The notes beneath the pieces are model-generated. The model was not told the DNA's origin, ran no database searches, and was given only the letters and a program-made list of their open reading frames with translations. A DNA stretch of 52,666 nt, taken from positions 18,609-71,274 of the forward strand of contig CAZRVK010000005.1 in NCBI GenBank assembly GCA_964603585.1, written 5' to 3'. The DNA comes from an uncultured Planctomycetales bacterium. Its GTDB lineage: Bacteria; Omnitrophota; Gorgyraeia; Gygaellales; Profunditerraquicolaceae. The position numbers and the translations under genes are program-made. Shown here piece by piece: positions 10,488-50,952 of the stretch; within the stretch, counting starts at the first letter, position 1, and every line of letters starts with the position of its first letter.

Positions 10488-10605
10488 AAAAAGGGGACGT
10501 TTCTATTTTTCCGCTTCCCCTTTTTTCCTTCTTGACCAGCTTAGGTTTCTGGCATAAAATAACTTTCGCCAGGGAAAAGCGGAAAAATAGAAACGTCCCC
10601 TTTTT
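10488..10605. repeat. GGGGACGTTTCTA inverted-repeat element, locus A (29-bp arms, 60-nt loop)
   Basis: 10488-10516 is the exact reverse complement of 10577-10605. Confidence 0.95.
10532..10560 (+). promoter_or_regulatory. Sigma70-like promoter inside loop of locus A
   Basis: TTGACC-17-TAAAAT. Confidence 0.65.
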
Positions 10606-13291: not shown

Positions 13292-13311
13292 GTGTTTTTT
13301 TGGAAAAATGC

Positions 13312-13340: not shown

Positions 13341-13381
13341 TATATGTAATAAATATATATCTATATATGAAAAGCATACAA
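13319..13381. promoter_or_regulatory. Candidate operator: inverted half-sites TTGTATGCGTT / AAAGCATACAA
   Basis: 13319-13329 and 13371-13381 are reverse complements at 10/11 positions. Confidence 0.45.
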
Positions 13382-13396
13382 CCCGGCGTGATGCCG

Positions 13397-14986
13397 ATGA
13401 AGTTTTCCCAGAATGCGGTAAAGATACTGGGGCTTTTTTATTCCCACCCAAAAGAGCAATTCTATATTCATCAGTTAGGCCGCCTGCTAAAAAAGAAACC
13501 CGGGGTTTTTCAGCGGGTCCTGTATAATCTTGAGAAGCAAGGGGTTCTAAAAAGCCGGTTTTTAGCCAATGCCCGGTATTTTAGCCTGAATGAGAAGTAT
13601 CCGTTTTATAAGGAGCTTAAGAGTATTATTCAGAAAATGACCCCGGTCATATCCCTGGTTTTTCTTTTGAATACGTTATTAATTTCTCCGAATACCGCCT
13701 TTTGCGATAATGAAATTCTCCAGACTCTTGAACTCTCTTCTTTTTCGGAAGCGGCTAAGATAGCGCTTAAGAATAATAAAGATATCCAGATCCAGGAGCA
13801 GGCGCTGAATATAGCCAGTGCAGATATTTTGAATGCAAAAAGCGAGTTTTTGCCTAAAGTGGATTTTAACTCAAGCTATACACATAATGGCGCGGTGCTT
13901 CATTCTGGAAACTCTACTGCCGCCAAGAAGGACCCCGGGATATTTTCCGGTTTCAAGAACGATAATGCTCTGGGGATAAGCGTCAGCGAAACTGTTTATA
14001 ACGGCGGTGCAAACACTGCTCTCCTTCGCCAGGCACAGCTTGCTTTAAAAGAACAGACACAAACCCTAAGGGCTACCAGGCTCAATGTTGAACTGGAAGC
14101 AAAAAGGCTTTATTATGGCTTGTTGCTTGCTTATGAGACACGGCGTATCGCCGCTAATCTCATTCAGCAGGCCCAGAGCCATTATGAACAGATAAAGCAA
14201 AACCTCTCCCAGGGGACATCTTCGCGGTTTGATCTTCTGCAATCCAAAGTGCAGGTTTCACTTCTTATGCCTCAATTGATCAATGCCGATAATTCCATAG
14301 ATTTGATAGTAGCAGAGTTTAATAAACTTTTAGGCAGGAATGTAATGGCTAAGATTATTGTTGTCGATAAATTGAATTATGAGCCTTTTGAAATTAAAGA
14401 ATCGGATTTCTTGAAAGAGGCTTATTTGAATGAGCCGGAAATGATCTTAAGGTCACTGGGCATAGATATCAGCAAGTGGGCGGTTAAATACGCCCGTGCC
14501 GGATGGCTGCCGCAGGTTGAGGCGGGTGCGGATTATTCATACAGGTCCAATAACCTGGGGAATATGGTTAACAGTAAGCATAATAACTGGAACATTGGTT
14601 TTACTGTGCGTGTACCGATATTCGATGGGTTCTCCACTAAGGCCAAGGTAGATGCTGCCCGGGCAAAATATATGCAGTCAGTGATCGGCAAGGATAATTA
14701 CGCTGATCAGGTGGCAGTGGATGTCAGGCAGGCCTGTCTTGATCTTAAGCAGGCGAGCGCGATCATTGAATCTCAAAGGGATAATTTAGAGGATGCCAGT
14801 GAAGCATTGGAGATCTCCTACGTTCGTTACAATAATGGTGTGGGGATAAACCTGGATGTAATGGATGCCCAGGTTTCTTTGGCGAATGTGGAAAAGAACT
14901 TTGCCGAGGGTGTTTATGACTATATTATGGCAAAGGCAAAACTGGATAGGTTAATGGGCAAGGGCGGGATCGAGGAGGCCAAATGA
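13397..14986 (+). CDS. Winged-HTH::TolC-family outer-membrane efflux protein fusion
   Basis: First ~80 aa wHTH-like (FYIHQLGRLL..PGVFQRVLYNLEKQGVL..NARYFSLN); internal signal-like segment from 13637; two OEP repeats (ALKNNKDI, FLPKVDF, WLPQV, VPIFDG). Confidence 0.85.
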   Translation: MKFSQNAVKILGLFYSHPKEQFYIHQLGRLLKKKPGVFQRVLYNLEKQGVLKSRFLANARYFSLNEKYPFYKELKSIIQKMTPVISLVFLLNTLLISPNTAFCDNEILQTLELSSFSEAAKIALKNNKDIQIQEQALNIASADILNAKSEFLPKVDFNSSYTHNGAVLHSGNSTAAKKDPGIFSGFKNDNALGISVSETVYNGGANTALLRQAQLALKEQTQTLRATRLNVELEAKRLYYGLLLAYETRRIAANLIQQAQSHYEQIKQNLSQGTSSRFDLLQSKVQVSLLMPQLINADNSIDLIVAEFNKLLGRNVMAKIIVVDKLNYEPFEIKESDFLKEAYLNEPEMILRSLGIDISKWAVKYARAGWLPQVEAGADYSYRSNNLGNMVNSKHNNWNIGFTVRVPIFDGFSTKAKVDAARAKYMQSVIGKDNYADQVAVDVRQACLDLKQASAIIESQRDNLEDASEALEISYVRYNNGVGINLDVMDAQVSLANVEKNFAEGVYDYIMAKAKLDRLMGKGGIEEAK

Positions 14987-15816
14987 AAAAAAGATTGAAG
15001 TTTGTGGTTATTGCGATAGTTTTGATCGCGGCAGTTTCTGCAGCCGCTGTTTTCTTTATAAACCAGAGGAACGGCCGTAATAAACTGATCAAGGTCTCCG
15101 GCAACATAGAAGGTGATGATGTGCGTATTTCATTCCGGGTCGCCGGTCAAATCGTAGAACTTCTTACCGATGAGGGGCTGGTAGTAAAAAAAGGCGATAT
15201 TGTCGCCCGCCTGAACAAGGATGAGTTGAGTAAAACCAAGGCGGAGGCGGAGGCATCTTTAAAATACGCCGAGTATCAGTATAAACTCGATCGCGATGAT
15301 TATATTCGGGCGGAAAATCTTTTTAAGGCCGGGGCGATTTCCGAACAAAAACGCGATGCCGCTAAAACCCGCATGGATACCGATTACGCCAATATTAAAC
15401 AGCTGCGTGCTTCTCTGGAACTGGCCAATACTAAATTAGGCTGGACCGATCTTGCCAGCCCGCTTGATGGCTATATCCTGGTAAAGAGTTCTTTGGCTGG
15501 TGAGGTGGTACAGGCGGGGACACCGGTTTTTACCGCCGTTAATCTCGATGAAGTCTGGGTTACCGCTTATATCAGCGAGTCGGATTTAGGTAAGGTCAAG
15601 TTAGGCCAAAAGGCTTATGTCCAGACTGACAGTTATAAGGATAAGCGTTATAACGGCTGGATCTCATTTATCTCGAATCAGGCAGAATTCACTCCTAAAT
15701 ATATCCAGACTTCCGAGGAACGGGTCAAGTATGTTTACCGCATAAAAGTCCGGGTCGATAATTCAAGCCTGGAATTAAAACCCGGAATGCCCGCGGATGC
15801 CTATATTATTGAATAA
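14983..15816 (+). CDS. HlyD/MFP efflux adaptor (YbhG-like)
   Basis: VSGNIE, GQIVELL..EG..VKKG, SPLDG, AEFTPKYIQT, LKPGMPAD. Confidence 0.93.
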   Translation: MKKRLKFVVIAIVLIAAVSAAAVFFINQRNGRNKLIKVSGNIEGDDVRISFRVAGQIVELLTDEGLVVKKGDIVARLNKDELSKTKAEAEASLKYAEYQYKLDRDDYIRAENLFKAGAISEQKRDAAKTRMDTDYANIKQLRASLELANTKLGWTDLASPLDGYILVKSSLAGEVVQAGTPVFTAVNLDEVWVTAYISESDLGKVKLGQKAYVQTDSYKDKRYNGWISFISNQAEFTPKYIQTSEERVKYVYRIKVRVDNSSLELKPGMPADAYIIE

Positions 15817-15819
15817 CGC

Positions 15820-16557
15820 ATGATCACCATTAAGACGGAAAATCTCACCCGCAAGTTCGGGGAATTGACTGCCTTGGACAGCCTGGATCTTGAAGTAAGT
15901 GAAGGCGAGATCTTTGGCCTGGTTGGTCCTGACGGGGCAGGTAAAACTACCACTATGCGCCTTTTAACCGGGATCCTGGATCCGACTGCCGGGCAAGCCT
16001 GGGTTTATGATAAGCATACGTTTAAGGAATCCGAAGCCCTAAAAGAAAATATCGCTTATATGTCCCAGCGATTCGGGCTTTACGAGGAATTAAGCGTTCA
16101 GGAGAATATAAATTTCTACGCCGATATTTACGGCGTAGATAAAAAAAAACGCGTTGAAACGATCGACCGGTTGCTTGAGTTTTCTGGACTCCTGCCTTTT
16201 AAACAGCGTTTTGCCGGTAAGCTTTCCGGAGGGATGAAGCAGAAGTTAGGTTTGGCCTGTGCTTTGATCCATACCCCAAAAGTTTTATTTCTGGATGAAC
16301 CCACTAATGGGGTTGATCCGGTTTCCCGCCGTGATTTCTGGAATATCCTCTATGATTTGCTTAAGGAGAAAGTCACCATCTTCTGCTCTACCTGTTATCT
16401 GGATGAAGCCGAACGCTGCGGCCGGGTGGGGCTTATGCATAAGGGCCGGCTTTTACGTTGTGACCCTCCGGGTAAGATTAAAAAGGAATACAATGCTAAA
16501 ACCCTGGAAGAGGCGTTTGTTATTATTATCAAGGAATATGAAGGAAAACACTCTTAA
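15820..16557 (+). CDS. ABC ATP-binding protein (YbhF N-half-like)
   Basis: GPDGAGKTT, LSGGMKQK, LFLDEP; H-loop reads STCY. Confidence 0.93.
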   Translation: MITIKTENLTRKFGELTALDSLDLEVSEGEIFGLVGPDGAGKTTTMRLLTGILDPTAGQAWVYDKHTFKESEALKENIAYMSQRFGLYEELSVQENINFYADIYGVDKKKRVETIDRLLEFSGLLPFKQRFAGKLSGGMKQKLGLACALIHTPKVLFLDEPTNGVDPVSRRDFWNILYDLLKEKVTIFCSTCYLDEAERCGRVGLMHKGRLLRCDPPGKIKKEYNAKTLEEAFVIIIKEYEGKHS

Positions 16558-17503
16558 CAATATCGCGGTTAGCGTATCTGATTTGGAGAAAAAATTCGGA
16601 GGATTTGTTGCGGTTAACCGGATTAATTTCGCTGTCAACCAAGGAGAGATCTTTGGTTTTTTAGGGCCTAACGGTGCGGGAAAATCTACCACCATCAGGA
16701 TGCTTTGCGGGATACTTAAGCCTACCTCCGGCAGCGGCAAGGTGGGGGGATTCGATATAATCAAGGAACAGGATAAAATAAAGGAAAATATCGGGTATAT
16801 GTCGCAAAAGTTTTCACTCTATAACGATTTGACTATCGAGGAGAATATTAATTTCTACAGCGGTATATACAAAATCCCTAAGAAGGACAAAGAGTCTCGT
16901 TTCAAAGAAACTATTCTTACTGCCGGCCTTGAAGGTATGGAGTCAAACCTGACCGCGACACTTGCCGGTGGATGGAAACAGCGGCTTGCCCTGGGGTGCG
17001 CGCTAATTCATAAGCCAAAGATAATCTTTCTCGATGAGCCTACTTCCGGGGTTGATCCGATAACCCGCGCTAACTTTTGGGGGGTAATTAAGGGCCTGGC
17101 CGCGCAAGGGGTAACGGTTTTTGTCACCACGCATTATATGGATGAAGCGGAAAACTGTAATCGCATGGTGATCATTTATCACGGAACGATTATTGCCAGC
17201 GGTACTCCCCAGGAGATGAAAACCAAATGTATGAAAAATGATGTGCTTGAGATAACCTTAGCTGATGCGCAAAAGTGGCTTGAGAAGATCAGTAAGATCA
17301 AAGGGATCAAAGAAGCGGCGCTTTTCGGGGCCAATATCCATACAGTTGTCGATGACAGCGCTCAAGCTATCCCTGAACTAAAAGAGTTCTTGAAAAAAGA
17401 GAATATAGGGGAGTTCAGTGTGAATAAGATCCTCCCTTCGCTAGAGGATGTGTTTGTTTCATCAATAGAGAATTATGATCGTTCAGAGCTTAAAAAGAAT
17501 TAG
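16538..17503 (+). CDS. ABC ATP-binding protein (YbhF C-half-like)
   Basis: GPNGAGKST, LAGGWKQR, FLDEP, TTHY; ATG 16538 with AAGGA RBS preferred over 16295. Confidence 0.93.
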   Translation: MKENTLNNIAVSVSDLEKKFGGFVAVNRINFAVNQGEIFGFLGPNGAGKSTTIRMLCGILKPTSGSGKVGGFDIIKEQDKIKENIGYMSQKFSLYNDLTIEENINFYSGIYKIPKKDKESRFKETILTAGLEGMESNLTATLAGGWKQRLALGCALIHKPKIIFLDEPTSGVDPITRANFWGVIKGLAAQGVTVFVTTHYMDEAENCNRMVIIYHGTIIASGTPQEMKTKCMKNDVLEITLADAQKWLEKISKIKGIKEAALFGANIHTVVDDSAQAIPELKEFLKKENIGEFSVNKILPSLEDVFVSSIENYDRSELKKN

Positions 17504-18617
17504 AGCTATCGCTTTAAAAGAGTTTATTCAGATCAAACGTGATCCGCGCAGCCTTGGCCTTGCGCTGGGGATCCCGATATTCCTTTTGCTCATTTTTGGC
17601 TATGGACTTTCTTTGGATATTGATCATGTACGCACGGTGATTTGGAACCAGGACGCTTCTTCAAAAGTTACGCGGGATTTCCTGCTCAATTTCAAGAATT
17701 CAAAATATTTCAATATTGTCGGGTATACGGATAATTACCGGGATATCCAGCATATGATAGACAGCGCAGAGGTGATGATGGCGATAGTGGTCCCTAAGGA
17801 TTTCTCACGTTATTTGGAATCCGGCAAGACTGCCCAGTTGCAGCTGATCGTAGATGGCAGTGATGCCAATACTGCGACTATCGCGATGGGGTATGTGCGT
17901 ACAGTGGTTGCCAATTATAACGTTTCGTTATTGAACACTGCCTTTGAATCGCATGGGTTTTTGCCTCCCCGGGCAGTGGATGCTCGATCGAGAGTCTGGT
18001 TCAATATGGGATTGACCAGTACCTGGTTTATCGTCCCTGGGGTAATTGCGATGATCATTATGATCATCGCCGCTCTTTTGACATCTATCTGTATTGCCCG
18101 GGAGTGGGAAAGAGGTACGATGGAACAGTTGATTTCTACTCCGGTAAAAGCGCCGGAACTGGTAATCGGTAAGTTTCTGCCATACTTTGCCATTGGTTTC
18201 TTCGATCTGGCGGTAGGGGTGTTGATGGCCAGGTTTTTATTCCATGTTCCTTTCCGGGGGAGTTATTTTTTACTTATCATCTTAAGCGCGCTTTTTCTTA
18301 CCGGGGCTTTATCGCAGGGGATATTGATCTCGGTAGTTGCCCGGACACAGCTCATGGCCTCTCAAATGGCCAGTTTGACTACGATGATCCCGACAATAAT
18401 CCTTTCCGGGTTTATCTATCCGATATTCAATATGCCCAAGGCGCTTCAGTTGGTCACCTATTTTATCCCTGCACGCTATTATATTATCGTAAACCGGGAG
18501 TTATTCTTAAAAGGAGGAGGGATCTCCACATTGTGGGATGATGCGATATTCCTGCTGTTGTTTGCTTTGATAATGTTTTTTTTGGCGGTAAAGAAATTCA
18601 AGAAGAAAGTAGCCTAA
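17475..18617 (+). CDS. ABC-2 permease (YbhS-like)
   Basis: KEFIQIKRD, VDGSDANTA, REWERGTMEQL, GKFLPY. Confidence 0.93.
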   Translation: MIVQSLKRIRAIALKEFIQIKRDPRSLGLALGIPIFLLLIFGYGLSLDIDHVRTVIWNQDASSKVTRDFLLNFKNSKYFNIVGYTDNYRDIQHMIDSAEVMMAIVVPKDFSRYLESGKTAQLQLIVDGSDANTATIAMGYVRTVVANYNVSLLNTAFESHGFLPPRAVDARSRVWFNMGLTSTWFIVPGVIAMIIMIIAALLTSICIAREWERGTMEQLISTPVKAPELVIGKFLPYFAIGFFDLAVGVLMARFLFHVPFRGSYFLLIILSALFLTGALSQGILISVVARTQLMASQMASLTTMIPTIILSGFIYPIFNMPKALQLVTYFIPARYYIIVNRELFLKGGGISTLWDDAIFLLLFALIMFFLAVKKFKKKVA

Positions 18618-18627
18618 GAGGAGACTG

Positions 18628-19755
18628 ATGTTTGAACGTGCCAGAGCGATATTTATAAAGGAATTCAAACAGATCTTCCGCGACCCGCGGATGAAGACGG
18701 TTATTTTTATCAGTCCTCTTTTTCAGATCATTTTGTTCGGATATGCCGCCAATAAAGATATTAACTATGTTCCTACCGCTATCTTTGACCGTGATAATAC
18801 TGTAGAGAGCCGTGAGCTTTTACGCAGGTTTACCTTTTCCAAGTATTTTGTCCCGAAAAAATATATTTATAATGAGCCCGAACAGGACTATCTTTTAAAC
18901 AGGGGTGAGGTGATCTCGGTCATTCATATTGACCGGGGGTTTGGCCGTGCACTTAACGCCGGTAAGCCTGCGAACATACAATTATCCTTTGACGGATCGG
19001 ATTCAAATACTGCGATGATCGTAATGGGCTATGCCAATACCATTATCAGCCAATACCAGTATGATGTGTTAAGGCAAAAGGCTGCGTTAAAAGGGCTAAT
19101 TGCAAGTGTCGCGAATGTGGAGTTGAGGGACCGGGCCTGGTTTAACGGCAATCTTGTTTCGACTAATTACTATCTGCCGGGGGTGATTGCGACTGTCGTA
19201 ACCATGATGTCTTTATTGTTGAGCGCTATGGCGATCGTCAAAGAAAAAGAGATCGGCACGATGGAACAGCTTATTGTCAGCCCGTTAAAGCCGATCGAAC
19301 TGATTGTAGGCAAACTGCTTCCATTCGGGATCATTGCGCTTATTCAGATCACCCTGGTTACATTACTCGGAGTGCTTTGGTTTCACGTCCCTTTAAGAGG
19401 CAACCTTATATTTCTGTTGTTTTCCACCTGTATATATTTATTCACTACTTTAGGCATAGGCTTGTTTATCTCTACGGTATCTGCGACCCAGCAGGAAGCG
19501 ATGATGTCGGTGTTCCTTTTTTATATGCCAACCGTTCTTTTATCGGGGTTTGCTTATCCGATCAATAATATGCCCAAGTTGATCCAGTGGTTTACTGTTT
19601 TCAATCCCTTACGCTATTTTATGGTGCTTATCCGCAGTATTTTCTTAAAAGGTATCGGGATCGAGATCCTCTGGACCCAACTTTTGCCATTACTGTTGAT
19701 GGGGGTATTAGTGATCACTTTCAGCACAATCCGTTTTAAGCGGAGTATGGGATAA
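18628..19755 (+). CDS. ABC-2 permease (YbhR-like)
   Basis: KEFKQIFRD, DGSDSNTA, KEKEIGTMEQL, NPLRYF. Confidence 0.93.
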   Translation: MFERARAIFIKEFKQIFRDPRMKTVIFISPLFQIILFGYAANKDINYVPTAIFDRDNTVESRELLRRFTFSKYFVPKKYIYNEPEQDYLLNRGEVISVIHIDRGFGRALNAGKPANIQLSFDGSDSNTAMIVMGYANTIISQYQYDVLRQKAALKGLIASVANVELRDRAWFNGNLVSTNYYLPGVIATVVTMMSLLLSAMAIVKEKEIGTMEQLIVSPLKPIELIVGKLLPFGIIALIQITLVTLLGVLWFHVPLRGNLIFLLFSTCIYLFTTLGIGLFISTVSATQQEAMMSVFLFYMPTVLLSGFAYPINNMPKLIQWFTVFNPLRYFMVLIRSIFLKGIGIEILWTQLLPLLLMGVLVITFSTIRFKRSMG

Positions 19756-19796
19756 ATCACCCGGGTTTATCCATTGTCCGGAGGAGACATAAGTAA

Positions 19797-20210
19797 ATGA
19801 AAATATCGAAAGAATCCATTATCAGGATCACATTCACTGTTATATTGCTGTTACTTTTTCTTTTTGCCAACATTTATACCTTCCGGCAGCTTTCCCGTAC
19901 CGGGCTTGAACTGTATTTTTACGATAAATTATTGGTTGCTTACCAAAGTGCCGGCCTGGCAGGTTTCAACAATGAGCTGGAGAGGATGCTTTTAGAGGAT
20001 AAGATGCCCAAGGAAGCGGTTCTTGCCAAGGAATTTCAGGCTAATTTGAATAAAATAGGCCCGGTAGATAAATTCTTAAAAGAAGTGATACAAGACAAGA
20101 AGATGAGGATTAACCATCTCAACCTGATGCGCAGAATCGCGTTTATTCTTATCCTCCTGATCATATCTTTTCGCCTGGCAGTTAATCTTTATTTTAGAAA
20201 GCGTAAATAA
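19797..20210 (+). CDS. Hypothetical membrane protein (2 TM)
   Basis: GGAGGAG RBS; hydrophobic segments at both ends. Confidence 0.75.
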   Translation: MKISKESIIRITFTVILLLLFLFANIYTFRQLSRTGLELYFYDKLLVAYQSAGLAGFNNELERMLLEDKMPKEAVLAKEFQANLNKIGPVDKFLKEVIQDKKMRINHLNLMRRIAFILILLIISFRLAVNLYFRKRK

Positions 20211-20283
20211 AACCGGATTCCGCTGGATTTTCTTATCTATGTGGGTTTTGTGATAATTATAGCCTGCGAGGAATGCTTGTTCT

Positions 20284-20306
20284 GTAGGGGCGGTCGTAAC
20301 CGCCCC
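20284..20306 (+). repeat. GTAG-type REP hairpin
   Basis: gtaggggcggtcgtaaccgcccc. Confidence 0.85.
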
Positions 20307-20375
20307 ATTTTCATAGTAAGAAAACGGTTAATAATCCTGGTGGGGGGATAATATATAGTTTGTTCTACGTGAATC

Positions 20376-20403
20376 GTAGGGGATGGTCGCGACCATCCAC
20401 TAC
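20376..20403 (+). repeat. GTAG-type REP hairpin (compensatory variant)
   Basis: gtaggggatggtcgcgaccatccactac. Confidence 0.85.
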
Positions 20404-20407
20404 AAAT

Positions 20408-20467
20408 AAAGGGGACGTTGCAATAAAGGGGACGCCTGCCTGCCGGCAGGCAGGTTTCTATTTTTCC
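20408..20467 (+). repeat. GGGGACGTTTCTA element locus B: truncated copy plus interrupted solo arm
   Basis: aaaggggacgtt (20408-19), then aaaggggacg[20-bp insert]tttctatttttcc. Confidence 0.9.
20435..20454. mobile_element. 20-bp perfect palindrome CCTGCCTGCCGGCAGGCAGG inserted in locus B
   Basis: Self-complementary; removing it restores the consensus arm exactly. Confidence 0.8.
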
Positions 20468-20526
20468 TATAATTCGCCCGCCGTTGTGTTATAATAACTT
20501 TCCTGATTAAAAGGAGTTTGTATCTT

Positions 20527-22512
20527 ATGTCTGATTTATTTAAAGAGCTTAATCCTGCCCAGCTTGAGGCGGTTCAATCTACTGAAGGACCGCATCTGAT
20601 TATTGCCGGTGCAGGGTCTGGTAAGACCCGGGTTTTGGTTTACCGGGTAGCATATCTTGTGCAAAAGGGGGTACGCCCGGATGAGATCCTCTTGCTTACT
20701 TTTACCCGTAAGGCCTCGGAAGAGATGCTTAAGCGCGCTTCTTTATTGCTGGATGAGCGCTGCCAGAGAGTTGCCGGAGGTACATTCCATTCTTTTGCTA
20801 ATATGCTTCTGCGTAAATATGCCGCTATTTTAGGTTTTTCCAATAATTTCACCATTCTTGATCAGTCTGATGCCGAAGACACCGTAAACCTTGTGCGCAC
20901 ACAGTTAGGGTATCATAAGATGGATAAACGTTTCCCCCGTAAAAAGGTTTTACTTGAAGTGATCTCGAAAAGCCTCAATAAATCACAGGATATCGGCGAT
21001 GTGCTTTATGAAGAGTATCCGCAGTTTATGGAGTGGCTTGAGGATATAAAGAAGATCAGAGATGAATATACAAAATACAAACAGGCTAAATCGCTTCTGG
21101 ATTATGATGACCTGCTGGTTTATTTAAAGAACCTGCTTCATCTGCATGCAGATGTGCGGAATTCTTTGTCACGTAAATACCGTTATATTATGGTGGATGA
21201 GTATCAGGATACGAATAAACTGCAGGCCCAGATCGTTTATCTTTTATCTTCGGCTCATAAGAATATCATGGTGGTTGGCGACGATTCGCAGAGCATTTAT
21301 TCCTTCCGCGGGGCGAATTTCAAGAACATCATTGATTTTCCCAAAATATTTGAGGGCGCCAAGATTATTACTTTAGAGGAAAACTACCGTTCCACTCAGC
21401 CGATCCTGAATTTAACCAATGAAGTGATCCGTTTTTCGGAGGAGAAATTCGAAAAAAACCTTTTTACCCGCAAGGCGGGAAGTAAACTTCCTGTGTTTGT
21501 GGATGCGCAAAATGAAAACGCGCAGTCCAGGTATATTGCGGATAAAATACTCGAATTGCGGGAAGAAGGGGTGGAATTAAAAGACATGGCTGTGCTTTTC
21601 AGGTCCGGATGGCATTCTAACGACCTGGAGATCGAGCTTGCCAGCCGTAATATCCCTTTTGTAAAATATGGTGGGCAAAAGTTCGTTGAGGCCGCGCATA
21701 TCAAGGATGTGATCTCGTATTTGCGTATTGTTTATAACCTGTTTGATGCAGTGAGTTGGCAAAGGGTGCTGTTATTGATGCGCGGAGTAGGGCCAAAGAC
21801 CGCTGAACGCATTATTAGCGAGATCACTTTGAGCAAGAAAACCGATGTTTTAGACAAAAAACTTCTGCAAAAATCCGAGGATATCCCGGCATTGTTCGTT
21901 CTTTTAGATAAGATCGATCCTGCGCATCAAGGCCCGGCAGAAATGATCCGCCTGTTCCTGGAGTATTACCAGCCGTTATTAAAAGACAAATACGATGATT
22001 TTAATAAACGCTTGAATGACCTGGATTCTTTGGAGCGTATTGCTTCGCGGTATAATTCTTTAGAACATTTTCTTACCGATATGGCTTTAGAGCCTCCGGA
22101 AAGAAGTATCTTTGAAGCCGGTAATAATGACCGGGATGACGATCCTCTTACTCTTTCTACCATTCATTCGGCAAAGGGGCTTGAGTGGCATACGGTATTC
22201 TTGATCTATGTAGCAGAGGGTCATTTGCCTTCGTATCTATCAATGGAAAACAAGGATGCGATTGAAGAGGAACGGCGGCTTTTTTATGTGGCAATGACCC
22301 GGGCTAAGGAGAACCTTTTTTTATTAAAGCCGCAGATTGACCGTGCGGCGCGAAGTTATATTAGCGGCCGGGAAAACTTCTCCGTGTTCACCGAAGTCTC
22401 ACGTTTTCTTGCCGCCGGAAGGATCATGCATAAATTCATTGATATCGAAGCCTCTGGGGATGCGCCCCAAAGCGAACTCGATGATATTGACCTGGAAGAT
22501 GTCTTTGATTAG
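20527..22512 (+). CDS. UvrD/PcrA-family (SF1) DNA helicase
   Basis: AGAGSGKT, LLTFTRKA, VDEYQD, VGDDSQSIYSFRGA, NYRS, TIHSAKGLEW, EERRLFYVAMTRA. Confidence 0.95.
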   Translation: MSDLFKELNPAQLEAVQSTEGPHLIIAGAGSGKTRVLVYRVAYLVQKGVRPDEILLLTFTRKASEEMLKRASLLLDERCQRVAGGTFHSFANMLLRKYAAILGFSNNFTILDQSDAEDTVNLVRTQLGYHKMDKRFPRKKVLLEVISKSLNKSQDIGDVLYEEYPQFMEWLEDIKKIRDEYTKYKQAKSLLDYDDLLVYLKNLLHLHADVRNSLSRKYRYIMVDEYQDTNKLQAQIVYLLSSAHKNIMVVGDDSQSIYSFRGANFKNIIDFPKIFEGAKIITLEENYRSTQPILNLTNEVIRFSEEKFEKNLFTRKAGSKLPVFVDAQNENAQSRYIADKILELREEGVELKDMAVLFRSGWHSNDLEIELASRNIPFVKYGGQKFVEAAHIKDVISYLRIVYNLFDAVSWQRVLLLMRGVGPKTAERIISEITLSKKTDVLDKKLLQKSEDIPALFVLLDKIDPAHQGPAEMIRLFLEYYQPLLKDKYDDFNKRLNDLDSLERIASRYNSLEHFLTDMALEPPERSIFEAGNNDRDDDPLTLSTIHSAKGLEWHTVFLIYVAEGHLPSYLSMENKDAIEEERRLFYVAMTRAKENLFLLKPQIDRAARSYISGRENFSVFTEVSRFLAAGRIMHKFIDIEASGDAPQSELDDIDLEDVFD

Positions 22513-22584
22513 CCGAATAATGGTTGCTGGAGGCTTTTAGGCATGGTAATATATGACGAAAGCATGATTTAGAAAGGATCGATA

Positions 22585-23187
22585 ATGAACCGCCTGAAGA
22601 AATATTTGATCACCGGACTTTTAGTGATCGCGCCGATTTTTCTGACGCTCTGGGTGTTATTTATAATCTTTAAATTCGCGGATAGTATTTTAGGACGCTT
22701 CATCAACACATATATTAAAGCCGAGCTGGGGTTTAATATCCCTGGGATAGGGGTCTTACTTTCCCTGGGTATTATCATTTTAGTCGGTTTTTTTGCCAGG
22801 TTCCTGGTTGGCAAGAAGATATTCCCTACTTTTGAAAGATGGTTTTGCGCTTTACCGTTTGTAAAGAATATCTACCCGGCATTTAAACAGCTGGTTTCAT
22901 TTATGTTAGCACAAAAGGAATTCGGCTTTAAACGGGTGGTGCTGGTAGAGTATCCTTCAAAAGGGATTTGGTCTTTGGGTTTCTTGACTAATGATAAGCA
23001 TGAGTTGATCAGTTTGGAATGTGATAAGGAAATGGTCCCTGTTTTTATCCCGACTACTCCGGGCCCGTTCTCCGGATTTGTGGTGTTTGTGCCGCGCCAA
23101 GAGGTCAAATTCATTAAAATGCCGGTTACAGAAGCCCTGAAGATAATTATTTCCGGAGGGGTCTTTCGGGATGAACTTAATAAATAG
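22585..23187 (+). CDS. DUF502 membrane protein
   Basis: YLITGLLVIAPI, VVLVEYP, VFIPTTPGPFSG, ALKIIISGG. Confidence 0.9.
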   Translation: MNRLKKYLITGLLVIAPIFLTLWVLFIIFKFADSILGRFINTYIKAELGFNIPGIGVLLSLGIIILVGFFARFLVGKKIFPTFERWFCALPFVKNIYPAFKQLVSFMLAQKEFGFKRVVLVEYPSKGIWSLGFLTNDKHELISLECDKEMVPVFIPTTPGPFSGFVVFVPRQEVKFIKMPVTEALKIIISGGVFRDELNK

Positions 23188-23225
23188 GTATAGTTTTTGA
23201 TTTATTTTATAAGAGGGGGATAATT

Positions 23226-23702
23226 ATGGATTCCGGAGATGTTTATTTGACGAGATCTGGATATGAAAAACTGGTTCAGGACCTTGAGCATCTTAAGACC
23301 GTAAAAAGGCGGGAAATCTCAAAGGCGATCGGTGAGGCCAGGGCGCATGGCGATATCAGTGAAAATGCCGAATACGATGCCGCTAAAGACGCACAAGGGA
23401 TGAATGAAAAAAAGATCGCCGATCTTGAAACTAAACTTGCGCATGCGCGTATTCTCGATGATACCAATATGTCTACGGATGAGGTTTTGATCGGAGCTAC
23501 GGTTAAACTTCAGGACCTGGATACTTCTGAAGAGATGGAGTACACCTTTGTTTCTGAAATGGAAGCCGATTACACGCAGAACAAGATATCTGTAACGTCT
23601 CCGGTAGGAAAAGGGTTGCTGGGGCATAAACTGGGGGAAGTAGTAGAAATTCCAATCCCTGCAGGAACGTTAAAATACAAGATTTTGAATATTTCACGAT
23701 AA
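23226..23702 (+). CDS. greA: Transcription elongation factor GreA
   Basis: ARAHGDISENAEYDAAK, ISVTSPVGKGL. Confidence 0.97.
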   Translation: MDSGDVYLTRSGYEKLVQDLEHLKTVKRREISKAIGEARAHGDISENAEYDAAKDAQGMNEKKIADLETKLAHARILDDTNMSTDEVLIGATVKLQDLDTSEEMEYTFVSEMEADYTQNKISVTSPVGKGLLGHKLGEVVEIPIPAGTLKYKILNISR

Positions 23703-23731
23703 TCATAAGGCGCGAGGCTTAAAATAAATTA

Positions 23732-24499
23732 ATGCGCATATTAAGGCTGGCGTATAGACATAAAGAATGTTGGGGCCTGTTAGAGGCGGGTTTAGTCAAA
23801 GTACTAAAATACCCGCCTTTTTCGCGTATTGTGTTTAACGGGGATAAAATTCCTTTTGGGAAAATCGAATTATTGCCTCCAGTTTATCCCAGTAAGGTTG
23901 TTTTAGCCGGGCTTAATTACATCGATCATGCTCGGGAAATGAAGATGCATCTACCCGAAGAGCCTCTGATCTTTCTTAAACCCCCTACTTCAGTTATTGC
24001 TTCCGGAGGCGATATAATTTATCCTGATTTCGCGACCCGGGTGGAATACGAAGCAGAATTGGCCGTGGTAATAAAAAAAGAAGCTAAAACCATCAGAGAA
24101 GATGAGGTAAATGAATATATCTTAGGTTATACCTGCCTTAATGATGTAACTGAACGCGATCTGCAGAAAAAAGACGGCCAGTGGACGCGCGCAAAGTCAT
24201 TTGACACTTTTTGTCCCATTGGCCCCTGGGTAGAGACTGAAATTGATCCATCGAACCTGGCGATCAAGGCTTATCTTAATGGCCAACTGCGCCAGGATTC
24301 ATCAACCAGTAATTTTATTTTTCCGGTGAACCGGCTGGTTTCTTTTATTTCGCAGGTTATGACCCTTTTGCCAGGGGATGTAATCTCGACTGGTACCCCT
24401 GCCGGAGTAGGGCAGATGCATCCAGAGGATATCATTGAAGTGGAGATATCCGGGATAGGTAAGCTGACCAATACTGTGAAAAAGGCTTGTTCGGCATAA
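23732..24499 (+). CDS. Fumarylacetoacetate hydrolase family protein
   Basis: GLNYIDH, FLKP, EYEAEL, NDVTERD, AKSFDTFCP, STGTPAGVG. Confidence 0.93.
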   Translation: MRILRLAYRHKECWGLLEAGLVKVLKYPPFSRIVFNGDKIPFGKIELLPPVYPSKVVLAGLNYIDHAREMKMHLPEEPLIFLKPPTSVIASGGDIIYPDFATRVEYEAELAVVIKKEAKTIREDEVNEYILGYTCLNDVTERDLQKKDGQWTRAKSFDTFCPIGPWVETEIDPSNLAIKAYLNGQLRQDSSTSNFIFPVNRLVSFISQVMTLLPGDVISTGTPAGVGQMHPEDIIEVEISGIGKLTNTVKKACSA

Positions 24500-24521
24500 T
24501 CCAGCATGTTATATTGTGTCC

Positions 24522-25298
24522 ATGAAAATGAGATCATCCATTAAATTATTTATTTCATGCTTGGGGAACGCGGTGTTTTTGTCTGTATTTTCCTCCGCGG
24601 GGTTTGCTGATATGCTTTACTTGAAGAATGGGCGCAGCCTGGAGGGGATCATAAAAAAACAAAGCTCCGAACAAATTGAGCTAGACGTTGGTTTTGGTTC
24701 GGTTACTTTCGAAAAAAGCGCCATTGACAGGATCCATATGTCTACGCCTGAAGAATTTGCCAGGATAAAAGAGAAATGGCAGGTTGAAAAAGTTAAATCC
24801 GAACTAATGCGCGAACGTGCCGAGGAAGAAAGGAACCGGCAGATCGCTTTGTGGAAACAGCGGCATGACAAAGAATTAGAAGACGCGCAATTTGACCCCA
24901 AAGAGATAGCCGCTGCCAAAAGCTCTGGGCATATGATGGTAGAGGCACTTTTAAATAAAAAAGTAACCGCGACCCTGATGGTGGATACGGGTGCGTCTTT
25001 AATGGTATTGACCCGAAAGACGGCGCGGAACCTGGGGATTAATCTTGATACCGAAGGCGCAGATGTAATAATGCAGGTGGCGGATGGCCGTAAGATCAAA
25101 GCCAAATATGTGGTTTTAGAGACTGTCAGTATTAAGGATGTGGTAGCGGAAAAAGTAGAGGCAGCAGTTTTATTGGATAAAACAACCGATTATGGCTTTA
25201 AGGATGGCCTGTTGGGGATGTCTTTCTTACGCCGGTTCAATTTTAAATTCGATTACAATAAAGGAAGCCTGGTGCTGGAAAAGCTTCGTTCTTCTTGA
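24522..25298 (+). CDS. Exported retropepsin-like (clan AA) aspartic protease
   Basis: Signal peptide; MVDTGAS catalytic motif; GLLGMSFL. Confidence 0.88.
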   Translation: MKMRSSIKLFISCLGNAVFLSVFSSAGFADMLYLKNGRSLEGIIKKQSSEQIELDVGFGSVTFEKSAIDRIHMSTPEEFARIKEKWQVEKVKSELMRERAEEERNRQIALWKQRHDKELEDAQFDPKEIAAAKSSGHMMVEALLNKKVTATLMVDTGASLMVLTRKTARNLGINLDTEGADVIMQVADGRKIKAKYVVLETVSIKDVVAEKVEAAVLLDKTTDYGFKDGLLGMSFLRRFNFKFDYNKGSLVLEKLRSS

Positions 25299-25329
25299 GT
25301 TGTTTTCTAACCTGCCCGGAATAAACAAG

Positions 25330-25758
25330 ATGCCTGTATTCATATTTGCGGCGATACTGTTTCATATTTGCGGCTCTTTTAGCTATGCGGAGGTTTATCC
25401 TTCCAGAGTCTGTATGCAAAATGTCTGCGTGCAGGTAGAGGTGGCAAAGAATTTCGAGGAAAGATCTGCCGGTCTTATGTCGCGGAAGAGCCTTCCGGAT
25501 GAGTCCGGGATGCTTTTTATTTTTGATCAGGCAGGATTTTATAATTTCTGGATGAAAAACATGCTGATCCCCCTGGATATTATTTGGATCGCAGATGACA
25601 GAACCGTTATTGATATCGCTAAATATGCTTATCCTTGCACAAAAGAATGTTTAAGCTTTAGCCCGAAGGCACCGGCTAAATATGTCTTAGAGGTTAATTC
25701 TGGTTTTTGCGATAAGAACAAGATTCAGACAGGGCAAAAGGTGGCTTTTAAGGATTGA
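25330..25758 (+). CDS. DUF192 protein
   Basis: VEVA..RSAGLM, GMLFIF, FWMKNMLIPLDIIWI, YVLEVNSG. Confidence 0.92.
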   Translation: MPVFIFAAILFHICGSFSYAEVYPSRVCMQNVCVQVEVAKNFEERSAGLMSRKSLPDESGMLFIFDQAGFYNFWMKNMLIPLDIIWIADDRTVIDIAKYAYPCTKECLSFSPKAPAKYVLEVNSGFCDKNKIQTGQKVAFKD

Positions 25759-25788
25759 AACTAGATCTGCCGTATTCTGTGATCTAAA

Positions 25789-27666
25789 TTACCCTTCCCG
25801 CAGTTGTTTTTCTGCATCTACCACATCGCGGTTAATTACCCTGACAGTTTCTTTTATCTTCTGGCGCAAGGTATTGGATGCTACCTGCGAGTCATTTATC
25901 TCTTTGAGGATTTGGATACTCATGCGGAAATAGCGGATCACTTCCCCTTCGTCTGTATCCGTAGATTGCAGGATCTTGGCAAAATTTGTTCCGCGCAGCC
26001 AGGCTTCTATGGTCAGACTTAAATTGAAATAGGGGGGTTTACTGAAAGGATATATCCGGTATTGAGTTTCTTTTTCCTGGATTTGAAGGTAAGTCTCATC
26101 ACATATCTTTTTGATCCTGCGGATATTTTTGGCCAGGTTAGGCATATGCTGGTTCTTGCGCGGCTCAAAAACCACCGCTGTAGTGAGTATCCCCAAACCA
26201 AATTCATCCAGTTCTTCTAAAATGCCTGCCGCAAAAAGCTCCGAGAGTATCAATTCATAGCCATAAACATTCCTGGCGAATTTTCCTTTTTGGGTGAGTC
26301 CTGAATTTTCGATATACCCCAGGTCTTTAAGCAGGTTCAATTTCGCCTCTAAAAGTCTGATCGCCTCATTGCGTTTATTTTTTCGCGACTGAAAATAGTG
26401 TAATGACCTGGGATATATCTCAAACAGGCCTTCTTTATGCTTTTCATAAAGGTTAAGCAGGGTAGCGTAAGATGTGTTTAGCTGGCTGTTTACTTCTTCC
26501 GGAGAAGAATAGACCACCAGTTTTGCTTCCTGTGGGCTGATACGGCGGGGATTGATCCGGCAGTAGATAAACCCCTCGGTATCTATCCCGCGCCTGCCGG
26601 CACGCCCAGCCATCTGGTAAAAATCACGGGTTTTTAAATTCCGCACATAATGGCCGTAAAACTTTCGCAGTTCATCAAAGATCACCGTGCGGCTGGGCAT
26701 GTTTATCCCTAAAGCGAAAGTTTCGGTGGTGAATATCACTTTTAAAAGCCGGCTGGTAAACAGGCGTTCGATCACTTCCTTTAAGGTCGGCAGCATCCCG
26801 GCGTGATGAAAGGCTATCCCTTTTTGCACCAAAGGGTACATCTCTTCTGCAGAGCGTTCATGCTTTAATTCAAATCTGCGGCAGAGGTCGTCATACAAGC
26901 TGGTTATCTGGGATTTTTCTTTAGAGTTAAGGAAATTATAACTGTAGAGCTCCCGTGCCAGGTCTTCGGCGCGCCTTCTGCCAAAAACAAAATAAATACA
27001 GGGCAGGCCTTCTTTCTGGCGTATATAATTGATCAGGGTGTTTAGCCTATTGGGGCGGACATCCTTAGTGGGCCGTAACCGGTTGATATTATCGACAATC
27101 TCGTTCTGGCATTGATAGAAGAAATGCAGTGGTACGGGGCGTTTTGGTTCGATGACGGTTTTAATCGGTTTTTTATGTATAGATTCCAGCCACTGGGCAA
27201 GTTGTTCGATGTTAGGGATAGTGGCAGACAGTGCCAGCATATTCATGTGTGCGGGTAAAAATATCAGGGATTCCTCCCAAACCGTACCTCGTTCCGGGTT
27301 ATCTATGTAATGTATTTCATCAAAGATCACCCACTGGTATTTTGCCAGGCTTTCTGGCTCATCCAGTATTTTGTTGCGGAATATTTCTGTCGTCATAATA
27401 AGTACTGGTGCCCCGGGGTTCAGAGAAACGTCTCCGGTCAAGATGCCAATGTTGTCTTTTAGCTGTAATTGAAAATCACGGAATTTCTGGTTAGAGAGGG
27501 CTTTGATAGGAGCGGTATAGATCACTCCGGTTTTGTCCTGGATACAGGTATTGATCACATGTTCGGCAATGGCGGTTTTTCCTGCCCCGGTAGGTGCGGA
27601 GACGATTACCGAATATTTCTGGTTTATATAATTGATTGCATCTTGCTGAAAAGGGTCGTAGATCAT
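25789..27666 (-). CDS. Ski2/HelY-like DEAD/DEAH RNA helicase
   Basis: APTGAGKT, PIKALSNQK, FDEIHY, LSATIPN, FHHAGMLP, QMAGRAGRRG, DSHCT-like end; ATG 27666 preferred over TTG 27702. Confidence 0.92.
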   Translation of the reverse strand: MIYDPFQQDAINYINQKYSVIVSAPTGAGKTAIAEHVINTCIQDKTGVIYTAPIKALSNQKFRDFQLQLKDNIGILTGDVSLNPGAPVLIMTTEIFRNKILDEPESLAKYQWVIFDEIHYIDNPERGTVWEESLIFLPAHMNMLALSATIPNIEQLAQWLESIHKKPIKTVIEPKRPVPLHFFYQCQNEIVDNINRLRPTKDVRPNRLNTLINYIRQKEGLPCIYFVFGRRRAEDLARELYSYNFLNSKEKSQITSLYDDLCRRFELKHERSAEEMYPLVQKGIAFHHAGMLPTLKEVIERLFTSRLLKVIFTTETFALGINMPSRTVIFDELRKFYGHYVRNLKTRDFYQMAGRAGRRGIDTEGFIYCRINPRRISPQEAKLVVYSSPEEVNSQLNTSYATLLNLYEKHKEGLFEIYPRSLHYFQSRKNKRNEAIRLLEAKLNLLKDLGYIENSGLTQKGKFARNVYGYELILSELFAAGILEELDEFGLGILTTAVVFEPRKNQHMPNLAKNIRRIKKICDETYLQIQEKETQYRIYPFSKPPYFNLSLTIEAWLRGTNFAKILQSTDTDEGEVIRYFRMSIQILKEINDSQVASNTLRQKIKETVRVINRDVVDAEKQLREG

Positions 27667-31114: not shown

Positions 31115-31209
31115 GCAAAAAAGCAAAAAAGGGGACGTTTCTATTTTTTGAAAAAAATAGAAACGTCCCCTTTTTGCTTTTTGCCCTTTTTGCAAACGTC
31201 CCCTTTTTG
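31115..31209. repeat. GGGGACGTTTCTA element locus D (near-perfect palindrome plus extra partial arm)
   Basis: Arms 31125-31149 / 31151-31175, complementary outer GCAAAAAA/TTTTTGC tandems, third partial arm 31194-31209; lies between convergent genes. Confidence 0.95.
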
Positions 31210-31718: not shown

Positions 31719-31792
31719 GCAAAAAAGGGGACGTTTCTATTTTTCGGGAAAAAATAGAAACGTCCCCTTTTTTGGAAACGTCCCCTTTTTTG
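31719..31792. repeat. GGGGACGTTTCTA element locus E
   Basis: Arms about 31720-31745 / 31748-31774, extra partial arm 31775-31792. Confidence 0.95.
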
Positions 31793-46780: not shown

Positions 46781-46836
46781 GCAATAAAGGGCAATAAAGG
46801 CAATAAAGGGCAATAAAGGGGACGTTTCTATTTTTT
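46781..46836 (+). repeat. (GCAATAAAGG)x4 tandem leading into solo GGGGACGTTTCTA arm, locus F
   Basis: gcaataaagg gcaataaag gcaataaagg gcaataaagg ggacgtttctatttttt. Confidence 0.92.
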
Positions 46837-49061: not shown

Positions 49062-49147
49062 AAAAAAGGGGACGTTTCTATTTTTTATCTATCTTAATTG
49101 CTAAAAAAATAGAAACGTCCCCTTTTTTGGAAACGTCCCCTTTTTTG
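49062..49147. repeat. GGGGACGTTTCTA element locus G
   Basis: Arms 49062-49086 / 49104-49128, 17-nt loop, extra partial arm 49130-49147. Confidence 0.95.
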
Positions 49148-50883: not shown

Positions 50884-50952
50884 AAAAAAGGGGACGTTTC
50901 TATTTTTTCGCGAATTAAGGAAGGATGAAAAATAGAAACGTCCCCTTTTTTT
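50884..50952. repeat. GGGGACGTTTCTA element locus H
   Basis: Arms about 50884-50909 / 50927-50951, ~17-nt loop. Confidence 0.95.

Follow-up and report, generated by a model that had tools for sequence, protein, structure and literature searches.

Can a DNA unit of twenty base pairs be a mobile element in its own right, and what could move it? The question is raised by a 52,666-bp stretch of an uncultured bacterium of the phylum Omnitrophota (GenBank assembly GCA_964603585.1, contig CAZRVK010000005.1, positions 18,609 to 71,274; this whole 52-kb stretch is hereafter called the window), in which a perfect 20-bp palindrome, CCTGCCTGCCGGCAGGCAGG, named P in the following, interrupts one copy of an intergenic repeat. 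The evidence presented below makes it probable that P of the window is a solo copy of a cross-phylum 20-bp palindromic insertion element, and that it makes up the DNA component of a selfish system in two parts, with a mini GIY-YIG nuclease as the protein component.

Precise insertion of P into a host repeat

P occupies positions 20435-20454 and is the single match to its sequence in the window, even with up to three mismatches allowed (0 expected from shuffles). The 21-mer of the host repeat, AAAGGGGACGTTTCTATTTTT, has 11 exact unbroken copies in the window, against approximately 0.01 expected by chance, starting at positions 10490, 10583 (minus strand), 31128, 31153 (minus), 31724, 31750 (minus), 46815, 49065, 49105 (minus), 50887 and 50928 (minus). 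The copy at 20425-20465 is split as ACG/P/TTTC, and excising positions 20435-20454 gives back the 21-mer consensus to the base, with no target duplication and with exactly 20 nt added. The insertion boundary is ambiguous by 1 base, AC/GCCTG...CAG/GTTTC reading identically, since P ends in G and is itself preceded by G. The features concerned are the following:

20435..20454, no strand: P, perfect 20-bp palindrome CCTGCCTGCCGGCAGGCAGG; solo copy, GIY-YIG gene not adjacent
20425..20465, plus strand: host repeat copy split by P, AAAGGGGACG/TTTCTATTTTT; filled site
20408..20421, plus strand: partial tandem unit of the host repeat, AAAGGGGACGTTGC, directly upstream of the split copy
10490..10510, plus strand: unbroken host repeat, paralogous empty site, with an inverted partner at 10583-10603
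31128..31173: hairpin pair of unbroken host repeats (31128-31148 on the plus strand, 31153-31173 on the minus strand), inverted repeat I6
31724..31770, no strand: hairpin pair of unbroken host repeats, inverted repeat I7
46815..46835, plus strand: solo unbroken host repeat arm, the nearest structural counterpart of the filled copy
49065..49125, no strand: pair of unbroken host repeats, inverted repeat I18
50887..50948: pair of unbroken host repeats

The original prediction, made from the sequence alone, had placed a perfect 20-bp palindrome exactly inside a repeat arm (its span, 20408-20467, corresponds to the palindrome plus the surrounding repeat), had stated that deleting the palindrome restores the family consensus without target duplication, and had regarded the pre-insertion allele as visible within the window; the exact 21-mer regained and the 11 unbroken copies bear out all three statements. 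The host repeat had already spread when P was inserted, as had also been proposed, P having entered precisely into the older repeat. The orthologous empty site of the window locus was not recovered: the nearest non-identical relative of the helicase encoded downstream is only 77% identical, and hence no alignable intergenic region is at hand.

Distribution of P across phyla

A scan of one genome per species, the listing of which gives a lower bound, found exact P in at least 120 species-representative genome stretches. Among those listed, the carriers belong to Patescibacteria (many classes), Omnitrophota, Planctomycetota, Bacteroidota, Gammaproteobacteria, Bdellovibrionales, Thermodesulfovibrionales and Chloroflexi, including the cultured Bacteroidota Winogradskyella echinorum, Flagellimonas yonaguniensis, Longitalea luteola and Flavivirga. 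A viral-contig collection contained exact P in 35 stretches, with 3-6 copies on some contigs, and two control palindromes of the same composition (arms swapped; C/T exchanged) had 0 matches each in that collection. The flanks of P are unrelated between copies. The loci fetched for comparison (1.25 Mb) harbor 168 exact copies and no more than a few dozen that are decayed or variant. No exact P was found in PLSDB plasmids (72,556 records) or INPHARED phages (50,697 records); the partial matches in these two databases are due to chance, the best of them (Runella) being 17 nt long and lying inside a gene. Likewise, the 12-mer CCTGCCGGCAGG at window positions 29001-29012, considered as a short relative of P, turned out to belong to the chorismate synthase gene, where it natively encodes the conserved EGLPAGL motif close to the N-terminus of the protein. 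As a separate observation, one viral contig (L155, 3915-4124; locus numbers of the fetched loci are prefixed L) carries ten tandem copies of a 21-nt variant of P, CCATGCCTACCGGCAGGCAGG, with several more 21-nt variants near the array, a length divisible by three that would keep a reading frame.

Inside genes, P is found in frame as the peptides LPAGRQ or PACRQAG, in agreement with the inserts that the original prediction had mentioned for other uncultured bacteria. Thus, FtsK of a Saccharibacterium reads ..YNAN-LPAGRQA-ADVREPLPY.., with the P-derived insert in the middle, and a dTDP-glucose dehydratase contains a nested double insert, LPALPAGRQAVRQG.

These data bear on two trivial explanations. 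The first, according to which the palindrome is a sequencing, adapter or assembly artefact, is hardly credible. Many carriers of P are indeed metagenome-assembled genomes, but the filled allele of the window recurs in the separate Logan assembly SRR15237810 (window 10527-26236, one mismatch) and P is present in cultured isolates. Moreover, the insertions are precise, the tRNA or repeat sequence being restored upon their removal and the frames staying open, and the absence of P from the plasmid and phage records, which were obtained with the same technologies, argues against a technical origin. The 20-mer is therefore neither unique nor peculiar to one assembly, and the proposal of a 20-nt mobile unit too short to encode anything is upheld by identical 20-mers with unrelated flanks in many phyla, by nesting, and by 31 empty sites located in the same loci as filled ones (see below).

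The second explanation, an independent local origin of an immobile hairpin through slippage or terminator selection, is very improbable. It draws on the structure found by a pattern scan at the window site, where the insertion places a GC hairpin in front of TTTCTATTTTT, 72 nt ahead of the helicase start, a combination that scores as terminator-like:

20434..20465, plus strand: terminator-like structure formed by the P hairpin and the T-rich host repeat half; 8-bp stem, 4-nt loop

Against this, the identical 20-mer is found at over 150 unrelated sites, both composition-matched controls gave 0, and the 11 sister repeats of the window have no insert. T tails are not enriched at P either, following 13.9% of P copies (n = 165) and 16.5% of random positions, and a general role of P as a terminator was rejected on this ground. 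Apart from the local hairpin and T-run, the window insertion is probably neutral.

Insertion sites of P

Comparison of the two flanks of 165 P copies revealed an identity of 0 nt in 97 cases and of 1 nt in 50, i.e. no regular target duplication. The few flanking identities of 7 nt lie in heptamer tandem repeats, in which a P located between units looks like a 7-nt target duplication. P is a discrete unit of 20 bp whose insertion is precise and leaves the target unduplicated. Spacers hold P copies, often between such heptamer units; solo P was seen exactly between 7-nt tandem units in L046, L081, L083, L102, L122, L127, L130, L140 and L145, the units being TTCGTCA, CCTCACC, AATTACG, GGTGAGA, AATGCCA and others. 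Other copies lie at the loop-stem junction of unrelated hairpins (L020, L026, L068, L080, L011) or are nested in another P (L019, L043, L022, L171), and in L005 an unbroken copy of the interrupted repeat unit is located upstream in the same locus. The idea that P represents the joined ends of a larger transposon was rejected, solo half-sites being decayed or variant copies without a partner.

Target preference is visible as a bias. Among 123 genome copies, position -1 of P is A in 41% and T in 9% of cases, with nothing conserved further out, and the flank pairs A/T (33 of 123) and G/G plus C/C (33 of 123) are 3-4 times over-represented. Read on the minus strand, the window site, GAAA/CGTC, agrees with the preference for A before P. 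The original prediction had suggested deriving a target preference from pairs of filled and empty sites; at the tRNA sites described below, A nearly always precedes P on the tRNA strand. Shared 6-mers are approximately fourfold enriched (direct, 16.4% versus 3.8%; inverted, 11.5% versus 2.9%), which may reflect nothing but intergenic location. The folding energy of 40-nt empty sites showed no difference from that of random positions, by a measure too blunt for this purpose.

A small GIY-YIG nuclease and a tRNA fragment accompany P in a group of loci

Two sets of loci were analysed for genes associated with P. In the P-selected set of 155 loci, all-against-all clustering of open reading frames (ORFs) yielded one informative family. 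Its members are small GIY-YIG proteins of a single domain; in L038, L153, L119, L107 and L061 their ORF begins 10-40 nt past P, and in L078 it follows a variant P. The nuclease-selected set consisted of 80 metagenome loci fetched by similarity to this approximately 80-residue protein alone. Here, exact P was found no more than 120 nt upstream of the ORF in 41 of 80 loci and a variant with up to three errors in a further 15, and several of the other loci have nested or different GC-rich palindromes at the place of P.

The surroundings of the ORF form a cassette of constant order: the 5' part of a tRNA beginning at position 1 is followed by P, a further 5-20 nt of that tRNA and a short linker; then come the ORF and a complete tRNA, which lies within 0-16 nt of the stop codon or overlaps it. 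In most cassettes P is present on one side only; P on both sides together with a duplicated target was found in L172, L175, L187 and L224. A mirror-image form (intact tRNA, ORF, short arm, P, tRNA 3' part) also exists, for example in the cultured Algoriphagus machipongonensis, where P is located at the junction of the T-loop and its stem, while the cultured Ekhidna lutea carries the first form with two decayed P copies. In L061 (3861-4200), P and the GIY-YIG module are inserted in frame into HsdS, a type I restriction specificity gene; the insertion falls in the conserved central helix of HsdS and leaves one continuous frame of 714 codons.

These cassettes supply direct pairs of filled and empty sites. 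Of the 53 exact P copies in the nuclease-selected loci, 31 are accompanied by their 22-nt empty site elsewhere in the locus, in most cases without a mismatch, and 28 of these 31 empty sites lie inside the intact tRNA; in all filled and empty pairs, 20 nt are added and nothing is duplicated. The insertion points within the tRNA are 14/15, 20-24 and 32. When P was removed in silico, ARAGORN regained a tRNA call at a single P-selected locus, L031. At L016, L038, L100 and L107, the tRNA-like flanks are 5' fragments rather than broken whole tRNAs, and that of L086 is cut by the contig end. The nuclease ORF itself often runs into the 5' end of the intact tRNA, as in L241 (833-843), L248 and their relatives (proteins P0242, P0319, P0358), where tRNA sequence supplies the final codons and the stop (..MGD*, corresponding to ATGGGCGATTAG of tRNA-Val; ..PRGATE* in tRNA-Arg), so that the gene and the 5' end of the tRNA evolve as one piece.

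The partner protein matches the Pfam GIY-YIG domain PF01541 with E-values of 3e-15 to 5e-17, no specific NCBIfam model exists for it, and its nearest solved relatives in the PDB are UPF0213 and SLX1, at weak similarity (E about 5e-5). The catalytic-type residues Y5, Y15, G17, R25, H29 and E61 are at least 93% conserved among 86 domains. Database entries (e.g. P0121, P0123, P0131) are often 90-133 residues long instead of about 78; in these, the start was probably called upstream through P, giving N-termini with PACRQAG or CLPAGR. Besides this family, the P loci include a four-helix-bundle ORF resembling the '23S rRNA intervening sequence protein', which in L051 (3400-3797) has P 18 nt upstream and whose relatives in three other P loci do not adjoin P. 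No integrase family recurs near P or the cassettes.

The recurrent neighbour is thus not the HUH nuclease or reverse transcriptase that the original prediction had suggested looking for. A related explanation, in which P is an element of the repetitive extragenic palindrome (REP) or IS200/IS605 type, mobilised as single-stranded DNA by an HUH transposase (Y1, RAYT-like), is quite improbable, even though duplication-free insertion and hairpin DNA are typical of that family and the window is rich in REP-like hairpins headed by GTAG. P has no conserved head tetranucleotide or flank; it is a perfect single-hairpin palindrome of 20 bp, whereas elements of this type depend on separate left and right ends. 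Its sequence is the same in different phyla, while each REP is specific to a lineage, and no Y1 transposase family recurs near it.

A second palindrome, Q, co-varies with the C-terminal tail of the nuclease

Proteins linked to P end in ..REKYLKSGxG(K/R)E(F/Y)LK. In three of the nuclease loci collected initially, a different element, Q, reading CCCGCCCG..CGGGCGGG, occupies the same D-loop position. Q is a 32-nt unit, CCCGCCCGAACGTACCGTTCGGTACGGGCGGG, present in either orientation, and the proteins linked to it end in ..REKYLKSAAGRR(F/W/Y)R, with a tail of the type ..YLKSAAGRR. Seven independent loci with relatives of this second type, from Scalindua, another planctomycete, Roseivirga, a Patescibacterium, and Winogradskyella and Aequorivita-like contigs, have Q at GGCTA/GAGC or GAATA/GCGC in 7 of 7 cases and P in 0 of 7. 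Counted with identical proteins removed, tails and palindromes are distributed as follows:

Tail SGxG[KR]: exact P 49, variant P 19, Q 0, neither 12
Tail SAAGRR: exact P 0, variant P 0, Q 9, neither 0
Tail QGSR: exact P 0, variant P 0, Q 0, neither 3

Both main tail types are present in Patescibacteria and in Bacteroidota, so the palindrome follows the protein and not the phylum. Furthermore, P is identical at 20 of 20 positions beside proteins that are 45-57% identical to one another, which is the signature of a recognised site rather than of recent common descent. P and a single subfamily of mini GIY-YIG proteins are tightly and specifically associated by co-occurrence, the sister subfamily carrying Q. 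L242 and L243 encode the same protein and agree in their flanks, but their Q elements are set apart by a GC-rich insert of 24 nt, and Q is inverted between the related loci L241 and L242; together with the nesting of P, such differences are signs of recent activity.

Several further palindromes were observed. Q itself occurs in L241-L249, L200, L223, L226, L040 (886-918) and L073 (1571-1602), in the last case away from a gene of the SAAGRR type. The third GIY-YIG subfamily, with the tail ..YLKT(S/N)QGSRLLK (L183, L203, L205, L229), has neither P nor Q and no obvious tRNA; a longer inverted repeat, CCGGGTAGTGAAACTTTG.., lies upstream of its ORF. A small GC-rich palindrome, TCCGCCAGCTGGCGGA, is present in 5 P loci, including L012 and L017, palindromes of the CCGCC..GGCGG type in the tRNA fragments of L191 and L199, GGACAGGTCGCGACCTGTCC three times in L113, and TCCCGATAAAATCGGGA in the tRNA-Leu fragment of Algoriphagus (L239, 1309-1325). 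A whole zoo of small palindromic units may exist.

Two alternatives concern the relation between P and the cassettes. According to the first, P is moved by some other machinery with a preference for tRNA-like loops and accumulates harmlessly in dead tRNA fragments, which are made by insertion of the GIY-YIG gene and serve as a safe haven. Its probability is low, yet several observations speak for it: at least two different small palindromes often share one fragment (L168, L172, L191, L192, L199, L239), the insertion points cluster at loop-stem junctions of the tRNA (14/15, 20-24, 32, T-loop), and the GIY-YIG gene is far from most P copies. Against it stand the tracking of palindrome type with subfamily instead of phylum (68 P and 0 Q versus 0 P and 9 Q), with both subfamilies present in Patescibacteria and Bacteroidota, and the finding that no other ORF family is tied to P in the 155 P-selected loci. 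In addition, an occupancy of approximately 70% of the fragments by one and the same 20-mer, beside proteins only about 50% identical, is hard to obtain from independent hits.

The second alternative holds that a solo P is a footprint, the remnant of a cassette flanked by two P copies and lost through recombination between them, in the manner of a solo long terminal repeat. The two-sided cassettes with a duplicated target (L172, L175, L187, L224) are what such a process would start from, and recombination in them would leave target, P and target. It is nevertheless unlikely, given that P is one-sided in most cassettes, that cassette insertion seems to require 14-46 nt of tRNA homology, which the window site lacks, that neither a tRNA nor an ORF remnant was found near position 20435, and that solo half-sites remain unpaired at kilobase distances.

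Proposed mechanism

Under the favoured reading, P and a mini GIY-YIG nuclease constitute one selfish system, and P appears to rank among the smallest mobile DNA elements seen, with a candidate enzyme. The nuclease would recognise its cognate palindrome, plausibly as an extruded hairpin or cruciform, by means of the co-varying C-terminal tail, and would cut both at the hairpin base and at exposed single strands or stem-loop junctions elsewhere, such as cloverleaf-like folds of tRNA genes and loops of repeats. The freed 20-nt hairpin or 20-bp duplex could then be ligated into the break, adding 20 nt without any duplication. For the window copy, the nuclease would have been encoded elsewhere in this Omnitrophota genome, as we assume, or supplied transiently, after the host repeat had spread. 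The cassettes might be formed by a single crossover in the long tRNA arm, between a chromosomal tRNA gene and a unit comprising the ORF, the tRNA arm, the palindrome and the short arm, possibly a circle of approximately 330 bp; a crossover of this kind would explain why the stop codon of the ORF lies inside the 5' end of the tRNA. The original prediction of a 20-nt mobile unit holds at its core, but P also belongs to a tRNA-linked cassette, its usual setting, and is not a free agent alone. A more far-reaching proposal, put forward tentatively and with considerably less confidence, is that P (20 bp) and Q (32 bp) provide the cis-acting part of mobile elements with two components, a new class in which the approximately 80-residue GIY-YIG protein acts as a palindrome-specific transposase or homing enzyme.

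Several findings weigh against this reading. The link between nuclease and palindrome is a statistical one, drawn from comparison of loci, and about 96% of the P copies sampled by sequence are solo, the route of their insertion being deduced indirectly. No GIY-YIG gene of the partner family was detected in the 52-kb window, and the empty site of the window forms no convincing hairpin on either strand, so that the stem-loop-junction rule fails for this very copy. The flank bias described above is real but not simple, and no single cleavage rule fits it. Inserts in coding regions have lengths divisible by three, which a 20-nt unit does not by itself provide, so that imprecise events or later adjustment are called for. 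Finally, the tRNA fragments of L168, L172, L191, L192 and L199 also hold other small palindromes, and the association could partly reflect tolerance of insertions in dead pieces of tRNA.

Genomic context of the window insertion

P sits in a spacer of 316 nt between a gene for a predicted membrane protein and a helicase gene, the closest named relatives of which are from Candidatus Omnitrophota. Two GTAG-headed REP-like hairpins (GTAGGGG...) precede it by 40-150 nt. The original prediction of three repeat classes stacked within approximately 190 bp is accordingly sustained, both hairpins belonging to a family with six copies:

19797..20210, plus strand: upstream gene, 137-residue predicted membrane protein; P starts 224 nt past its stop codon
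20283..20306, plus strand: REP-like hairpin GTAGGGGCGGTCGTAACCGCCCC, family D4, 6 copies in the window
20375..20398, plus strand: REP-like hairpin GTAGGGGATGGTCGCGACCATCC, family D4
20527..22512, plus strand: downstream gene, UvrD/PcrA-type helicase (Pfam UvrD-helicase); its ATG lies 72 nt past the end of P

The REP-like family (GTAG head, GTAGGGG.GGTCGTGACC.CCCC; copies at 10613-10639, 20280-20306, 20373-20399, 28871-28897, 49017-49043 and 50835-50861) usually adjoins the host repeat, which is itself an unexplained family. Copies of the latter are mostly arranged in inverted pairs forming long hairpins, and its arms, AAAAAGGGGACGTTTCTATTTTT, make near-perfect inverted pairs with loops of 2-60 nt, always in intergenic positions (regions 10488-10605, 31119-31208, 31716-31794, 46792-46836, 49056-49166 and 50864-50954). 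Degenerate tandem units (AAAGGGC, GGGGACGTTTCC) often precede the arms, and partial tandem units like that at 20408-20421 are found beside other copies too, e.g. at 31197 and 31779. The GC skew is positive in all 2-kb bins of the window and nearly all long ORFs are on the plus strand, which places the window on one replichore with strongly co-oriented genes.

Comparison with known systems

The closest system in concept is that of REP/REPIN sequences and their RAYT proteins, where short non-coding palindromes far outnumber the gene of a dedicated protein, which is presumed to act on them, and each protein clade has its cognate palindrome (PMC3116915, PMC2817692). The P system shares the many short palindromes, the dedicated protein and the clade-specific pairing. 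It differs in that the partner is a GIY-YIG protein of approximately 80 residues and not an HUH Y1 transposase, with its gene in a tRNA-linked cassette, and in that P is a perfect palindrome without a GTAG-type head, occurs as singlets instead of doublets and is shared across phyla. There is no conserved head, no Y1 family was found among the ORFs of the 155 P loci, and the 52-kb window holds a single P. REPs, by contrast, are imperfect palindromes that reach high copy numbers within one genome and flank the gene of their Y1 transposase. Nor does P match a miniature inverted-repeat transposable element derived from a DDE transposon, which has terminal inverted repeats and a target duplication of fixed length: P shows no fixed-length duplication, and no full-length element with P half-sites at its ends was found. 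Compared with the palindrome-associated transposable elements of the IS200/IS605 group, which insert 3' of a fixed tetra- or pentanucleotide and have distinct subterminal hairpins on the left and right, P likewise causes no duplication, but it shows target biases only (A at -1; A/T, G/G, C/C) and has a single 20-nt hairpin, and no TnpA was found nearby.

In size and behaviour, the closest counterparts are the small dispersed repeats (SDRs) of Nostoc, reported by Elhai et al. in 2008 (Genome Res 18:1484, cited in PMC3116915) as 'very small mobile repeated elements', with lengths of 21-27 nt. They reportedly form hairpins, insert precisely into other repeats, are present or absent in otherwise identical sequences and are often nested. 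To our knowledge, SDRs are limited to some cyanobacteria and have been linked to no enzyme. P is likewise a hairpin unit inserted precisely into repeats; filled copies lie next to empty ones, and nesting occurs. It differs in sequence and host taxa, measures 20 nt, crosses phyla and has a candidate protein partner; the resemblance is one of kind only.

Rickettsia palindromic elements are small palindromic inserts that are tolerated in frame in protein genes and in RNA genes, a tolerance inside genes that P shares. Yeast mitochondrial GC clusters are inserts of this kind as well (PMC4478555). Units of both kinds are longer, with approximately 30-150 bp, stay within a single lineage or organelle and are not known to have an enzyme of their own; the GC clusters show target duplication, whereas P shows none.

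Among GIY-YIG enzymes, I-TevI cuts at some distance from the insertion point of its gene, and the position of P, 5-20 nt from the ORF module, may reflect a similar geometry. Phage T4 SegB is a free-standing GIY-YIG endonuclease encoded at tRNA genes (PMC2330249), and as in the P cassette its gene is found among or next to tRNA genes. SegB and I-TevI, however, have 200-250 residues with a separate DNA-binding domain and no known associated palindrome, whereas the P partner is a bare catalytic domain with a short tail, in a cassette with a conserved palindrome and a duplicated tRNA fragment. A homing endonuclease gene would be present or absent at one site among related genomes, its recognition site being disrupted in the carrier allele. 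In the carrier loci here, one tRNA copy is interrupted by P while a second is intact, and no orthologous alleles lacking the cassette were retrieved. SLX1 cuts branched and stem-loop DNA and works with SLX4 in repair, and we know of no cognate DNA element for it; by analogy, its activity would fit a nuclease acting on extruded hairpins or on cloverleaf-like DNA of tRNA genes. Integron attC cassettes resemble the P cassette in combining a single small ORF with a palindrome, imperfect in the case of attC, as the apparent recombination site, but no tyrosine integrase and no attI platform are present here, and the ORF would encode its own enzyme. Overall, the P system is not a member of the REPIN-RAYT, SDR, Rickettsia-element or SegB-type systems, from which it differs in enzyme class, perfect palindrome, cross-phylum identity and tRNA-fragment cassette. 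No description of the P sequence, of its peptides or of a cassette combining GIY-YIG, tRNA and palindrome was found in the literature searched, and Rfam returned tRNAs only, with no model for P or the cassette.

Implications

For annotation, P accounts for the recurrent peptides LPAGRQ, PACRQAG and CLPAGR in predicted proteins, for N-terminally over-extended GIY-YIG gene calls and for tRNA genes missed by detectors. The cassettes duplicate tRNA fragments, and their ORFs end in tRNA genes, which bears on the evolution and expression of tRNA genes in many uncultured lineages. The nuclease, with about 80 residues, seems to read a 20-bp or a 32-bp site through a short C-terminal tail, a property of interest for the study of specificity and as a compact tool, and cultured carriers such as Algoriphagus machipongonensis make experiments feasible.

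If the link between palindrome and nuclease holds, a 20-bp sequence identical from Patescibacteria to Bacteroidota would be a mobile unit, lowering the known size limit of such units, and the orphan class of very small mobile repeats would have its first candidate enzyme. Should the nuclease be shown to move the palindrome, the system would represent a new class. If P and Q are indeed the cis halves of such a class, the autonomous unit of ORF, palindrome and tRNA arm (approximately 330 bp) would rank with the smallest DNA elements known to mobilise themselves, and the 20-bp solo copies, including that of the window, would be the smallest non-autonomous elements, exchanged between phyla.

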